Positions 1-3,000 of a DNA stretch of 15,951 nucleotides are shown here, one piece after another; positions within the stretch are counted from its first letter, which is position 1; every line of letters begins with the position of its first letter. Position numbers: made by a program. Location of the stretch: assembly GCA_039000165.1 (NCBI GenBank), contig JAWBTW010000004.1, forward strand, positions 32,470 through 48,420, read 5' to 3'. Source of the stretch: Candidatus Aenigmatarchaeota archaeon (GTDB lineage: Archaea; Aenigmatarchaeota; Aenigmatarchaeia; CG10238-14; SCSR01).

Positions 1-3000
1 ATCACTTATTCTTTATAATTAGCTCATGCTTTAAATTTTTAATTGTTTTTTGCATTTTTCACAAATATTTTTTGTTTTTCTATCGACGTCGAAAACTGTG
101 TTGGAAAAGCTCATCACGCACTCAGGATTATCACAATGTTTAAGCCCAAAGACATGACCCATTTCATGTATTGCTTCTTTCACCGCCCTTTTTACTAAAA
201 TCTCTTCATTATAAACTTGTTTGTAGAAAGTCGGATTAAGTCTTGCTATAGAAACTATTGCAACCCTTCCGTTAAGTTGGGCTTGGCCGAAGACAAAATT
301 TAAGTCTTCTGCGTATAAATCCTGGTCTGTTATACCTAAAATTCTTCCCTTAAAATTTCTCGAAAGAAAGTCTAGAATTTGAGGAGCTACATATTGATGT
401 CTGTAAGGATTGTAATAATCTTTCGGCAAACCTTTTTCAGGAAGAATTTCTGAAATTAAGCCAAAGGTGTCTCTTAATTCATCTTTTATGTTGTTTAAAA
501 CTTTTTCCGGAATTTTCCCAAATGGTATTATTGTTAATTTCATAATTAAATAATGGTTAAAAGAATAAAAAGAATTAACTAGTTAAAATTTTTTAGTAGT
601 TTTAAAACAATAAAAAATTATGCATTCAAAAATTGAAACTTGTTATGAAAAAATTTGTAAAATAGCAAGAGTTGCCTCAAGCGTTAATAGAGAATATGTA
701 TAAAAACTTATGGGACAGGAGGGATTTGAACCCTCGACACACCGGTAACCGCTTAGTTCTTCAGCCGGTTGCTCTCCCGGGCTGAGCTTACAGCACATTA
801 GTGATACTGTCCCTACGACTGTCCCATTTCCTACATAATAAAATGGTTTCTAATTTATTTTGCTTGTTTAGATTTTGAAATCCTATCTCCTCTTTTAAAT
901 TAATTAATGAATTTAACCTTTTAATACGTAACCTTATTCCACAAGTTATTACCCCATCCTTTCGTACATTGAATGTGTTTGATATAAATATTGTTGATTT
1001 TATATTAAAGAATTTTTCAAGACCTTCTTTAATCTCATTTAAGAATTGGAAACCATTATCAAGTAAATTTTGGGATTTCCACATTTCCAAACCTATAAAT
1101 GGGTTGTGTTTGCTGATGTCGACCGTGCCTTCACAATTGAAAACCATCCTAACAAAACTTCTGAAACACTCTTTTTTATTTTTAATCCAAGTTGGTACAG
1201 AAAACTCTTGCATTACCTTACAACCTTTTGGAACCCCTACTAAATGAAGTACTCTACTCAACAATTTACAATTCACACCAAAATTGAAAGTTTTTCCAAA
1301 TTTGTTTCCCTTACAAGGCCTCACTCTTCCTTTGATACCAAACAAATTAAAAATTTCATTTCCAAATATTTCTAACTCTTGGAGATCTTTTGAAGTAAAA
1401 TCAAATCTCCATTTAGGTTCACCTTGGAGATGCCCATCACACATCAAGGCTGCAACTATAGATGCTAGTTGTGGAGAAGAACGAACAGGAAACCAATTGC
1501 TATGTAAATTAATTGAATTTATTGCATGATCTCTCGATTTGAATAACTTTATTACATCTTCTTCAGTTACTAAAATCTCACTCATTTTTAACACAAAATA
1601 AATAAGAGATAGCCATTTATTTATCTTTCGAAATTTTAGTTCCGGTAAGTTCTTCTTTTAAGAACTTAGAATCTCTACAAACTATTTATTTCTTACCGAG
1701 TCTAAACTTTATTCCTTCTTTCAGAATAAAAATTAAAACTCCTAAAACAACTCTTACTCCTCTTATTATTCCACTTTTTTTCTTGTACAAAACTTTAACC
1801 GGAACTTGTTTAATCTTAAGCCTATTTTTTAAGGCTTGAATAAACAAAGCATTTTCTATTATGTAGCCTCCATAAACAGCTTTGCTTAAAGTTTTAATTT
1901 TGTTTCCAGCTATAGCTATTAAACCACAGTTGGTATCTTTAAAGTTGGTCCCAAAAAGCAAGTTAAAAGAGCTTTTCCATACAAAATTCCCAAGCTTATG
2001 CCTAAACGGAATTTTTCTGAAATCTCTGTAGCCTGTAACAAACTCAGCTTCTTTTGCTTCTATGGGGGCTAAAATTTTCAAAGCTTCTTCTGGTGAATAC
2101 TGCAAATCAGCATCAAGGAGAACAACAGCCTTAATGTCATTTCTTTTTTTCAAATAATTGAAACCTGTTTTTAAAGCTTCACCCTTCCCTTTGTTTATTT
2201 CATGCCTTAAAACTATGGCTCCAGCCTTTTTTGCTAGTTCATAAGTTTTATCAAAAGAACAATCGTCTATAACCACAGGTACAATTCCTAACTTTTTAGT
2301 CCTTCTCACAACTTCATAAATAGTTTTCTCCTCGTTGTACGCTGGAATTAAACTATAAACTTTCATAAATAGCTTAAGAAAAAATAAACTTTTAAACTTA
2401 AACTTCTATAACTTCTGCTTGCCAGTAGAACCTATTTAAATCATGTTTGTAAAAGATTGAAAACTTTTTTTTGAGTTAAAAAAAATCCTAAAAACATCTT
2501 TAACGCAAAACACATAAATTTTTTTCTTTTGACTTGATAGGTGATATTATCTTTTAATTCAAACAAAACTCTACTTGTATATTTGGTTTTTTTATCTCAC
2601 TCATCAAAGACAATAAAATTTTGTAGAAAAATATTTTATTTTTCAACTAGTTTTTTTAATGTATCTTCAAAAATTTTGTAAGTTTCTGAATCATAAAGAA
2701 AGAAAGTAACTTTTTCCAATTTTGTTTTTCCTTTGAGGTAATTTATTACGCTAGAAAGCATTATTCTTGCACATCTTTCTTTTGGAAAGCCAAAAACACC
2801 TGTTGAAATAGCAGGAAAGGCTATATTTTTTAAGTTATACTCCTCGGCAAGTTTTAAACTATTCAAAGTTGCGTTTTTTAACTTTTCGTCTTCATTTCCC
2901 TCCCCGTAAACAGGACCAACAGCATGAATCACATATTTTACTTTTAGGTTTCCTCCTGAAGTTATTCTTGCTTCTCCAACAGGACAAAATCCTATTTTAT

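Follow-up and report, generated by a model that had tools for sequence, protein, structure and literature searches.

The stretch of DNA analysed here, referred to as the window, spans 15,951 nucleotides of a contig from a tiny hot-spring archaeon of the Candidatus Aenigmatarchaeota, labelled G000 in our genome comparisons; window positions are contig positions minus 32469. On its minus strand lies the sole tRNA-Phe gene found in this genome, interrupted by two short introns and entered from upstream by a 268-aa LAGLIDADG open reading frame (ORF). Just upstream of the mature 5′ end, still within the ORF, stands a second copy of the 5′ acceptor strand of the tRNA, which we call the leader copy. 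A tRNA-Asn gene further along the window is built in a parallel way, with an ORF of another family (Table 1).

Table 1. Features of the tRNA-Phe and tRNA-Asn loci, in window positions.
Feature	Position	Strand	Evidence or remark
tRNA-Phe(GAA) gene	813..711	-	
tRNA-Phe exon 3, positions 38-73, discriminator A at 711	711..746	-	ARAGORN cloverleaf
Canonical 12-nt intron at 37/38 of tRNA-Phe	747..758	-	ARAGORN, after removal of 17 nt
tRNA-Phe exon 2, positions 10-37: D arm, 5′ anticodon stem, anticodon GAA	759..787	-	
17-nt BHB intron between tRNA-Phe positions 9 and 10	788..804	-	removal gives cloverleaf; BHB motif
tRNA-Phe exon 1, positions 1-9	805..813	-	spliced cloverleaf, BHB parse
5-nt spacer between leader copy and tRNA-Phe exon 1	814..818	-	
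Leader copy: exact 7-nt repeat of tRNA-Phe 5′ acceptor strand	819..825	-	candidate surrogate partner for 3′ acceptor strand
Two TATA-like A/T boxes inside the ORF 3′ end, 860-851 and 843-835	835..860	-	putative, from promoter geometry
268-aa two-domain LAGLIDADG ORF	788..1594	-	motifs, profile searches, AF2 and Foldseek
tRNA-Asn(GUU), parallel case	3282..3196	-	locus including leader copy 3196..3291
15-nt BHB intron at 8/9 of tRNA-Asn	3274-3260	-	
Exact leader copy of tRNA-Asn acceptor strand, 2-nt spacer	3291-3285	-	
269-aa ORF, other family	3224..4033	-	weak N-terminal helix-turn-helix matches only
Intron-less 19-nt 5′ fragment of tRNA-Asn, upstream of 269-aa ORF	4070..4088	-	

ARAGORN calls no tRNA on the unspliced tRNA-Phe stretch, and the Rfam tRNA model reaches only 30.9 bits there. 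Once the 17-nt intron is removed, ARAGORN calls a perfect 74-nt tRNA-Phe(GAA) cloverleaf and finds the 12-nt intron unaided. An earlier note on this DNA had described both introns, and their coordinates, together with the spliced cloverleaf, were reproduced here. Rfam matches of the same stretch to ‘tmRNA’ and plastid models were rejected as artefacts of the interrupted tRNA. Elsewhere in the genome, a gene labelled Phe by ARAGORN at C3:53630 resolves as tRNA-Arg(GCG), and another at C3:61614, which gave no call on re-check, we take for an initiator tRNA by its 5′ strand. Standard tRNA finders miss or mislabel tRNA genes with 5′ introns, and in relatives ARAGORN read a truncated acceptor as a plain gene.

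The intron between positions 9 and 10 lies in a strict bulge-helix-bulge (BHB) motif of the form hBHBh′, parsed by hand and recovered in the same form by a script. Its outer helix joins tRNA positions 1-3 to 11-13, and a 4-bp central helix is formed by positions 4-7 and intron bases 12-15; the two 3-nt bulges read UA|U and AA|G, and the inner helix has 3 bp. Bases 1-7 of exon 1 thereby serve twice, as the acceptor strand of the tRNA and as a strand of the BHB helices. When 13 tRNA-Phe genes that carry a 9/10 intron are compared, 50 of 52 cells of the central helix are paired, and compensatory changes are seen at two of its four pairs: pair 6 is A-U in six genes and G-C in seven, while pair 5 is C-G in 12 and A-U in one. 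Brute-force enumeration of BHB motifs under relaxed criteria returned 76-277 candidate sites per locus and became usable after ranking by acceptor pairing; the ranked enumeration missed a relaxed 15-nt intron in two relatives (G350 and G348), which was parsed by hand. The genome has a splicing endonuclease gene (PF01974, 95.1 bits, C4:31828-32106) about 360 nt before the window and an RNase P RNA of 135.8 bits.

With two copies of the acceptor strand in tandem, the leader copy could also be read as the true or an alternative exon 1, in which case the excised intron would be a longer one of 29 nt, or one of 12 nt inside the acceptor stem. Relaxed criteria do give a BHB that uses the copy, with a 29-nt intron and four outer and two inner pairs, and ARAGORN accepts the product. 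The strict motif comes from the proximal copy, however, and no BHB can be drawn by hand for a 12-nt intron inside the repeat. In G000 the alternative product would have C at position 9. In three relatives the near-universal U8 does not come after the copy, which continues with GC in G136, CA in G133 and AC in G104, and the alternative product would therefore lack U8 there. We consider such an exon very improbable, and take the proximal copy as exon 1 in what follows.

The 268-aa ORF runs through the leader copy, exon 1 and the intron of tRNA-Phe, and its TAA stop codon is formed by the last three bases of the intron (790-788). The part conserved in the family ends near residue 252 (∼839), and the final 16 codons are leader, exon 1 and intron. 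The earlier note had placed a double-motif ORF against the tRNA gene; the two-motif LAGLIDADG ORF stands, but ‘abutting’ does not describe it, since the frame enters exon 1 and the intron. The Pfam match to LAGLIDADG_3 (E 0.00092, 19.9 bits) falls below the 22.5 cut-off, as that note had also said, and both motifs it named are present in the translation. NCBIfam gives a partial match to an intein model (2.8e-13, under its cut-off), and a profile search of the PDB finds VMA inteins at 3e-9. An AF2 model of the protein (pLDDT 93.1, pTM 0.90) has the pseudo-dimeric αββαββα fold, and Foldseek relates it to PI-PfuI (4e-10), the TliVMA intein (5e-9), I-Tsp061I (2e-7) and I-DmoI (5e-7). There are 138 PDB matches at E ≤ 0.001, and among the top matches listed all have a LAGLIDADG fold, whether nucleases, inteins, a maturase or WhiA. 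The two motifs carry D53-G54 and E155-G156; in an alignment of 26 homologues D53 and E155 are conserved in at least 90%, and G54 and K173 are invariant. By its motifs and predicted structure, the ORF product has the LAGLIDADG fold and retains the two acidic residues of catalysis, and it is probably an active, free-standing homing endonuclease.

A homologue is present in 137 of 371 genomes of the phylum. At 26 of the 29 best non-self homologue loci fetched (L002-L027), a tRNA gene lies directly downstream on the same strand, and each of these 26 tRNAs has an intron in its first 10 bases, at sites from 2/3 to 9/10 (script and hand parses). Such 5′-proximal introns interrupt two of 42 tRNAs in G000. 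The Phe-linked ORFs in the tree (n = 9) form one clade (support 100/98) that takes in host families f1, f8, f21, f38 and f39, and the Trp/Pro-linked ORFs form a separate clade (100/99). Within the Phe clade the ORF tree roughly tracks the host families, a pattern that vertical descent with losses could also produce. On gene order and parsed tRNAs, linkage to a tRNA gene is a property of the nuclease family as a whole and not of the tRNA-Phe locus alone, which is new here.

Relatives display the stages that the earlier note had listed, with decayed ORFs alongside the others, although these are related genomes and hence not independent samples. An intact ORF accompanies the 9/10 intron in G000, G134, G112, G113, G184, G016, G017, G312, G350 and G348. 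The ORF is broken by stops beside the intron in G141, G071 and G091, and the intron occurs without the ORF in G136, G104, G076, G074, G073 and G129. In G133 the intron is present and only 33 nt upstream are visible. A further 16 tRNA-Phe genes are plain at 9/10. Searches of G136, G104 and G133 for ORF remnants at the tRNA gene returned nothing at E ≤ 10, so neither loss nor gain is demonstrated by these loci. A stretch of an anticodon-stem intron in G137, considered as a remnant of the ORF C terminus, was rejected (10/18 residues, E 1.7, not significant).

This distribution bears on whether the protein is a mobile nuclease at all, or a domesticated maturase-like or regulatory LAGLIDADG protein that serves the adjacent tRNA, for example in intron folding. 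The Foldseek matches to the bI3 maturase (3.8e-7) and WhiA (3.4e-7) would fit such a role, as would the position of the ORF, which is always on the tRNA strand and overlaps the tRNA leader. A dedicated helper is hard to reconcile with the same 9/10 intron standing without the ORF in six genomes (the contig of a seventh, G133, ends 33 nt upstream of the copy), with the lack of any homologue at E ≤ 0.001 in G136 (80% complete), with decayed ORFs of one to five stops beside intact tRNAs, with the conserved catalytic Asp and Glu, and with the patchy distribution in the phylum. Domestication is thus improbable in our view, and a homing nuclease is the reading we carry forward.

The earlier note had reported a 7-nt copy of the acceptor strand 5 nt upstream of tRNA-Phe and had named Phe and Asn as the only tRNAs with such a tandem copy among the 34 of 38 that it could scan; the copy is exact, and in 42 parsed tRNAs (of 44 Rfam matches) these two again are the only ones with a second exact acceptor copy within 12 nt upstream, where random 7-mers would give about 0.03. 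The tRNA-His gene on C11 has an acceptor copy 38 nt upstream. Among relatives the copy is kept 7/7 in G000/G134, G136, G133, G104 and G091, with spacers of 5, 4, 4, 6 and 2 nt, respectively, that share no common sequence. Leader copies are confined to genes with 5′-proximal introns: all 16 plain tRNA-Phe genes lack a second acceptor copy, while tRNA-Trp, -Pro and -Arg genes with acceptor-stem introns have upstream copies of the spliced strand that match the local acceptor (e.g., G117 compared with G079). A decoy control was positive in 49 of 483 tests, mostly from similar acceptor strands that match the real acceptor; as this is no clean null, we relied on the comparison of plain and intron-bearing genes. 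At least nine genes with a 9/10 intron have no acceptor copy, and in these relatives the leader pairs with the D arm instead, so the general principle appears to be a leader that supports the splice motif, rather than the acceptor copy itself.

A role for the copy is suggested by folding models. In predicted precursors, the leader copy pairs with the 3′ acceptor strand while exon 1 occupies the BHB. This is the pairing that the earlier note had proposed; it is seen here in the models, and the copy is kept where the ORF is lacking. The energy of the BHB fold minus that of the acceptor-stem fold (constrained MFE at 37 °C, kcal/mol) is +0.6 with the leader and +10.6 without it in G000, and the corresponding pairs of values are 1.6 and 8.6 in G136, 1.9 and 13.3 in G133, -9.3 and 7.8 in G104, 1.7 and 16.2 in G076, 2.4 and 7.6 in G113, and 7.3 and 14.4 in G184, with the same trend at 60 and 75 °C. 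In these models the leader would offset about 10 kcal/mol of the cost of the BHB. Shuffled leaders reached the native value in 0 of 40 trials for 8 of 12 precursors; the G000 leader is unexceptional by this measure (7 of 40 shuffles equally good) and that of G136 is not exceptional at all (24 of 40). Even with its leader, the precursor of G000 has a BHB fold 6.2 kcal/mol above the free ensemble.

Could the copy simply be a non-functional scar of rearrangement? On this view, nuclease genes would integrate within tRNA genes or next to them, and part of the tRNA 5′ end would be duplicated in the process; the 19-nt intron-less fragment of tRNA-Asn upstream of the 269-aa ORF is such a duplication. 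Acceptor-strand 7-mers (exact or with one G-U) also occur 600-890 nt upstream, beyond the ORF, in G129 and G053 and more weakly in G094, and in G021 the sequence just after the copy looks like the T loop and 3′ end of the tRNA concerned. In addition, a published model derives a tRNA 5′ fragment and a new intron from a mobile element with an 813-bp ORF (PMC3293823). A scar is a possible origin, yet it leaves the maintenance of the copy unexplained: the 7-mer is intact in five lineages whose spacers and upstream flanks are unalignable, and it is absent from all plain tRNA-Phe genes. No simple tandem duplication accounts for it, as the bases flanking the two copies differ, and in genes with a short exon 1 of 2-4 nt the copy matches the spliced strand and tracks the local acceptor sequence. 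We therefore regard a mere scar as unlikely, and favour a copy that is kept for its pairing with the 3′ acceptor strand.

Whether the copy is transcribed would depend on the promoter. Over 37 tRNA genes of G000 the promoter signal comprises a weak TATA at about -38 to -31 and a T at -10, and the two A/T boxes upstream of tRNA-Phe fit this geometry equally badly. By position, one box would direct initiation shortly before the leader copy, whereas the other would direct it to the first base of the mature tRNA; the latter start would therefore leave the copy untranscribed. Three hot-spring metatranscriptomes (raw reads) and a contig set, also from hot springs, were searched for RNA from positions 500-4300, and the organism was undetectable in all four: two (X1, X2) gave 0 reads, and in the other two (X3, X4) the only matches were short, conserved pieces of tRNA from other organisms.

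The tRNA-Asn locus repeats much of this arrangement, including an exact leader copy, as the earlier note had observed. Its 269-aa ORF likewise enters the tRNA gene, with the stop codon in the anticodon loop. The model for Caldiarchaeum subterraneum has a similar layout, in which a tRNA 5′ fragment, an ORF of ∼810 bp and a tRNA with an intron stand one after another, but it involves an integrase/recombinase and att sites, and its accessible text describes neither a LAGLIDADG gene nor a tandem leader copy (PMC3293823). The tRNA-Asn fragment could take the place of exon 1 in the tRNA-Asn BHB and use its 3′ splice site. This would fit a reading in which the 268-aa ORF lies inside one very long tRNA intron whose real exon 1 is upstream of the ORF, in the manner of intron-encoded archaeal LAGLIDADG genes. 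For tRNA-Phe this is scarcely credible: no copy of tRNA-Phe exon 1 occurs between the ORF and the glycosyltransferase gene or elsewhere in the genome, the exon 1 9-mer being found once and the best upstream local alignment covering 7 nt.

We propose that the 5′ end of tRNA-Phe hosts a nuclease of the collaborative-homing type, a protective intron and a leader-encoded surrogate acceptor strand, a reading that we hold with belief and doubt in about equal measure. The nuclease gene adjoins the intron-bearing gene directly, and the parts are variably present among relatives. Stationed immediately upstream, with its frame entering the tRNA gene, the LAGLIDADG gene may target the uninterrupted 5′ part of tRNA-Phe. 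The 17-nt BHB intron, 9 nt from the mature 5′ end, would split this target and shield the host copy from its own nuclease. Repair of a break in an intron-less allele could then copy nuclease gene and intron jointly, because the intron directly adjoins the nuclease gene. This would amount to collaborative homing in which a protein-spliced intron takes the part usually played by a group I intron. The splice motif is made of the tRNA's own 5′ acceptor strand, which would leave the 3′ acceptor strand partnerless, and the 7-nt leader copy may act as its surrogate partner, such that the splice-competent fold is predicted to be about as cheap as the cloverleaf-like one. After splicing, the true acceptor strand would take over and RNase P would remove the leader.

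To our knowledge, the gain and spread of archaeal tRNA introns is an old open question, for which published proposals invoke intron transposition or integrating elements, the engine being undemonstrated. A family of target-specific nucleases beside 5′-intron tRNAs is a concrete candidate for that engine, which would cut the plain allele and copy in the nuclease gene with its protective intron. The spare acceptor strand, if true, would represent a type of cis-acting helper that is new to tRNA maturation; introns that use the acceptor strand would therefore need a stand-in for the 3′ end, and splicing would precede RNase P cleavage. More tentatively, and with rather more doubt than for the tRNA-Phe locus, nuclease gene, mini-intron and leader helper may be one co-mobile cassette that installs protein-spliced introns at tRNA 5′ ends across DPANN. 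Collaborative homing would then be a general route of tRNA intron gain, and the surrogate strand a required cis-acting splicing element, with splicing first and 5′ trimming later. The tRNA-linked nuclease family could also supply new rare-cutting specificities.

Several known systems share parts of this arrangement. I-DmoI, I-Tsp061I and PI-PfuI have the same single-chain two-domain fold, both acidic catalytic residues and an archaeal host, whereas the 268-aa ORF is free-standing, outside an rRNA intron or intein, with 12-23% identity to solved LAGLIDADG structures and a Pfam score below cut-off. Phage T4 SegB is a free-standing GIY-YIG homing endonuclease in a tRNA gene cluster. It resembles the 268-aa ORF as a free-standing homing nuclease associated with tRNA genes, and differs in being from a phage rather than a cell, in its nuclease family, and in having no intron and no overlap with a tRNA.

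With non-canonical archaeal tRNA introns, the tRNA-Phe intron shares a BHB motif at a non-canonical position, and in split and permuted archaeal tRNAs the splice motif is assembled with the help of sequences that lie beyond the mature tRNA (PMC4090602). In its accessible text, this review uses ‘leader sequence’ for split and permuted tRNAs only, the word ‘homing’ is absent, and a leader acceptor copy that replaces the BHB-bound strand is not described (PMC4090602). The literature we searched, which lay outside subscription journals and supplements, likewise yielded no description of leader copies of the acceptor strand or of LAGLIDADG genes beside archaeal tRNA genes.

A further parallel is F-CphI, a free-standing endonuclease encoded alongside psbA, an intron-containing gene of cyanophage S-PM2 (Zeng, Bonocora and Shub 2009, via PMC6083498). 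As described there, the gene that neighbours F-CphI likewise has an intron free of any ORF, this intron is believed to shield the host copy, the nuclease gives the intron mobility, and relatives occur with and without each part. The psbA intron is a self-splicing group I intron in a phage protein gene (PMC6083498), whereas that of tRNA-Phe is a protein-spliced BHB mini-intron in a cellular tRNA gene. F-CphI is also Endo VII-like rather than LAGLIDADG (PMC6083498), and the 268-aa ORF overlaps its putative target gene, where cleavage and protection are candidate functions.

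The tRNA-Phe(GAA) gene of the genome that holds the window (G000; 783 kb on 25 contigs, 91.6% complete) contains a 17-nt intron between tRNA positions 9 and 10 (9/10) as well as a canonical intron. On the unspliced stretch, which scores just 30.9 bits with the Rfam tRNA model, no tRNA was called by ARAGORN. Once bases 804-788 are deleted, the same program gives a perfect 74-nt tRNA-Phe cloverleaf and finds the 12-nt intron unaided.

Features of the tRNA-Phe and tRNA-Asn loci (window positions)
Feature	Position	Strand	Remark
268-aa LAGLIDADG ORF	788..1594	minus	runs through leader copy, spacer, exon 1 and intron
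Leader copy of acceptor strand	825-819	minus	exact, 7 nt; 5-nt spacer, then tRNA-Phe
tRNA-Phe exon 1	813-805	minus	
tRNA-Phe 17-nt intron	804-788	minus	at 9/10
tRNA-Phe exon 2	787-759	minus	
tRNA-Phe 12-nt intron	758-747	minus	canonical; recognised by ARAGORN
tRNA-Phe exon 3	746-711	minus	
tRNA-Asn	3282..3196	minus	15-nt intron, BHB register 8/9
tRNA-Asn block	3196-4088	minus	in order: 19-nt fragment, 269-aa ORF, leader copy, exon 1, 15-nt intron

A hand parse places a strict bulge-helix-bulge (BHB) splice motif, hBHBh', at the 9/10 intron, and a script recovers it, counting three pairs in the outer helix and three in the inner one. The outer helix joins tRNA bases 1-3 with 11-13, the central 4 bp join tRNA bases 4-7 with intron bases 12-15, the bulges are UA/U and AA/G, and an inner helix of 3 bp closes a 4-nt loop. 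The predicted motif is supported by covariation among 13 tRNA-Phe genes, where central-helix cells are paired in 50/52 cases and changes on both sides occur at two of the four pairs. Inspection of all tRNA 5′ ends in G000 confines introns at 8/9-9/10 to tRNA-Phe and tRNA-Asn. ARAGORN labelled two more genes Phe, both on contig C3. C3:53630 resolves as Arg(GCG); C3:61614 gave no tRNA call on re-check, and its 5′ strand points to a multi-intron initiator tRNA.

The sole match of G000 to the tRNA splicing endonuclease family PF01974 (C4:31828-32106, ∼360 nt before window base 1) is an open frame of 226 aa, two genes from tRNA-Phe. With one catalytic-domain gene found, the splicing enzyme may be of the strict-specificity type, which, if true, would raise the importance of well-formed BHB motifs and leader helpers. 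In the relative G104, the frame directly after tRNA-Phe (locus L038, 1597-2190) bears an endonuclease-like motif.

The TAA stop of the 268-aa ORF is formed by the final three bases of the 17-nt intron. Its Pfam LAGLIDADG_3 match (E 9.2e-4, 19.9 bits) is sub-threshold against the cut-off of 22.5. Among 26 aligned homologues, D53-G54 and E155-G156 are kept in at least 90% and K173 is invariant. An AF2 model on this alignment reached a pLDDT of 93.1 and a pTM of 0.90, and its best Foldseek matches in the PDB were PI-PfuI, the TliVMA intein, I-Tsp061I, WhiA, the bI3 maturase, I-DmoI and I-SceI. A profile search of PDB sequences matched VMA inteins at ∼3e-9, and NCBIfam matched the nuclease part of an RtcB intein (2.8e-13). 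On this evidence the ORF encodes a two-domain LAGLIDADG protein with its catalytic residues intact. Because the homologue alignment stops at about residue 252, the final 16 codons fall outside the family sequence.

The ORF protein is matched in 137/371 genomes of the phylum, and many of the weaker matches sit within 900-1500-aa frames, which we take to be inteins. Among the 29 best non-self homologue loci, a same-strand tRNA gene lies directly downstream in 26 (L002-L027); L028-L030 lack one. Twelve of these loci have tRNA-Phe and the others Trp, Pro or Arg, with one tRNA lacking an assigned identity; in most, the homologue frame enters the tRNA. By script and hand parses, all 26 tRNAs carry an intron inside the first ten bases: Phe at 9/10 or 4/5, Trp and Pro at 3/4 or 4/5, Arg at 8/9 and one tRNA at 2/3. 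In a maximum-likelihood tree, the nine Phe-linked ORFs, from host families f1, f8, f21, f38 and f39, form a single clade (100/98), and the Trp- and Pro-linked ORFs, whose tRNAs have their first bases in common, form a separate one (100/99). A pattern of this kind would be expected from target-specific homing nucleases. Branching within the Phe clade roughly tracks host families, so old vertical descent with many losses is also a possible account.

A conserved motif of ∼25 nt (core ...GGAAATGA.CC.CCGATA...) stands ∼40-60 nt upstream of the starts of LAGLIDADG homologues in L013, L017, L023 and L030, from different genomes; its possible roles are those of promoter, regulatory element or terminus of a mobile unit.

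The gene order glycosyltransferase, tRNA-Phe, M54 peptidase is kept among relatives, and the tRNA-Phe locus occurs in several states. An intact ORF with a 5′-proximal intron is found in G000, G134 (99% identical), G112, G113, G184, G016, G017, G312, G350 and G348, and an ORF with stops plus the intron in G141 (1 stop), G071 (5 stops) and G091 (3 stops). The 9/10 intron stands without the ORF in G136, G104, G076, G074, G073 and G129. It is also present in G133, whose contig begins 33 nt before the leader copy, where the upstream view ends; the G135 contig begins at tRNA-Phe base 1, outside these classes. Sixteen genes are plain at 9/10, among them that of G137, from the same genus as G000. G000 and G136 align to just beyond the glycosyltransferase stop, after which the alignment resumes no earlier than 5 nt ahead of the leader copy, and no ORF remnant was detectable in the ORF-less tRNA-Phe loci.

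In G312 (L006), ARAGORN calls tRNA-Phe plain, yet the acceptor pairs at 4/7 positions only; the true gene has a 28-nt BHB intron at 4/5, with helices built with the leader. When a tRNA finder reports a plain gene in these genomes, the call needs checking. The tRNA-Phe of G137 has an anticodon-stem intron of ∼124 nt (L049, oriented 1012-1135) with a long closing helix. Inside it, 18 codons resemble the ORF C-terminus (10/18 residues, 29/42 nt; E 1.7, not significant) and might be a remnant of an intron-borne nuclease gene.

Among the 42 parsable G000 tRNAs (44 Rfam hits), only Phe and Asn have their acceptor strand repeated exactly at a distance of up to 12 nt; copies farther off stand 38 nt upstream of tRNA-His on C11 and 310 nt upstream of tRNA-Cys. 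At tRNA-Phe the copy is exact in G000/G134, G136, G133 (genus g1), G104 (g16) and G091 (g12), with spacers of 5, 4, 4, 6 and 2 nt, respectively, that have no common sequence. It matches at 6/7 positions in G141 and is absent from 16/16 plain tRNA-Phe genes. Its retention where the ORF is absent shows that it is not a coding constraint. Nor is it an alternative exon 1, since no U8 follows it in G136, G133 and G104, or a fresh tandem duplication, given that the two copies have different bases on their flanks. Leader copies are lacking or incomplete in G112, G113, G184, G292, G311, genus g2 and G129.

In ORF-linked tRNA-Trp, -Pro and -Arg genes, exon 1 is merely 2-4 nt or the intron is at 8/9, and the spliced 5′ strand recurs 7-18 nt upstream as a 7-9-nt copy. 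This copy is exact in G021, G195, G117, G079, G094 and G092, has one G-U in G350/G348, G187/G188 and G093, and tracks the local acceptor sequence (e.g., G117 versus G079). In G021 (L014), a stretch like the tRNA's own T loop and 3′ acceptor end follows the leader copy ∼45 nt upstream of tRNA-Trp exon 1; this has the appearance of a collapsed copy of the tRNA, or of a local hairpin holding the leader copy.

Constrained minimum-free-energy folds were computed at 37 C for the precursor plus 25 nt of leader, and the BHB cost was taken as the stability deficit of the BHB-forming fold relative to the fold with the true acceptor stem.

Predicted BHB cost (kcal/mol) of tRNA-Phe precursors
Genome	With native leader	Without leader
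G000	0.6	10.6
G136	1.6	8.6
G133	1.9	13.3
G104	-9.3	7.8
G076	1.7	16.2
G113	2.4	7.6
G184	7.3	14.4

Folding at 60 and 75 C left the trend of the leader effect unchanged. The leader copy is predicted to pair with the 3′ acceptor strand in G000, G136, G133 and G104. In G076/G074, G112/G113 and G129 the predicted partner of the leader is instead the D arm, and the outer BHB helix is lengthened. The native leader gave the lowest BHB ensemble cost in 8/12 precursors, with 0/40 shuffled leaders as good. Shuffles equaled the native leader in 1/40 cases for G016, 2/40 for G133 and 24/40 for G136, and with 7/40 in G000 the window's own leader does not stand out in this test. The G000 BHB fold lies 6.2 kcal/mol above the free ensemble. 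Both RNase P RNA and a splicing endonuclease are encoded in G000, so processing of the leader would be feasible if it is transcribed.

The arrangement at G000 tRNA-Phe is best fitted by one of the collaborative-homing type, a concept set out in PMC6083498. The free-standing nuclease would probably target and cleave the 5′ part of the tRNA gene in its uninterrupted form, conferring mobility; the mini-intron would split this target, and the leader element, if transcribed, would make the mini-intron spliceable. The leader copy was perhaps created by duplication at the DNA level and may be maintained by its function at the RNA level. The searchable literature, with subscription journals and supplements outside it, yielded no LAGLIDADG genes beside archaeal tRNA genes and no spare acceptor strands in leaders. 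In its accessible text, a tRNA-intron review does not use "homing" and applies "leader sequence" to split and permuted genes only (PMC4090602); "leader", "homing" and "LAGLIDADG" are all absent from the main text of a 2026 Asgard intron preprint, whose supplements may bear on the point.

At tRNA-Asn the leader copy is exact and 2 nt upstream. A 269-aa ORF of a different family, with a weak N-terminal helix-turn-helix, runs into this gene. The ORF is preceded by a 19-nt 5′ fragment of tRNA-Asn that has no intron and, by BHB parse, could use the same 3′ splice site as exon 1. Homologues of the 269-aa ORF occur in 20/371 genomes, several of them decayed, and the same layout is seen at tRNA-Asn in G094, G129 and G053 and, in G005 and G073, at a tRNA whose acceptor sequence is a different one. 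A published Caldiarchaeum case combines a tRNA fragment with an 813-bp ORF and a newly arisen intron (PMC3293823); the G000 block resembles it in layout and ORF size. Window 2636-4140 was compared with G136 (L041) and G075 (L035), where a gene ending ...KDFLP is directly followed by the glycosyltransferase gene. Between these two genes, G000 has an extra block of ∼1.7 kb made up of tRNA-Asn, the 269-aa ORF and a Macro-domain gene (2636-3196).
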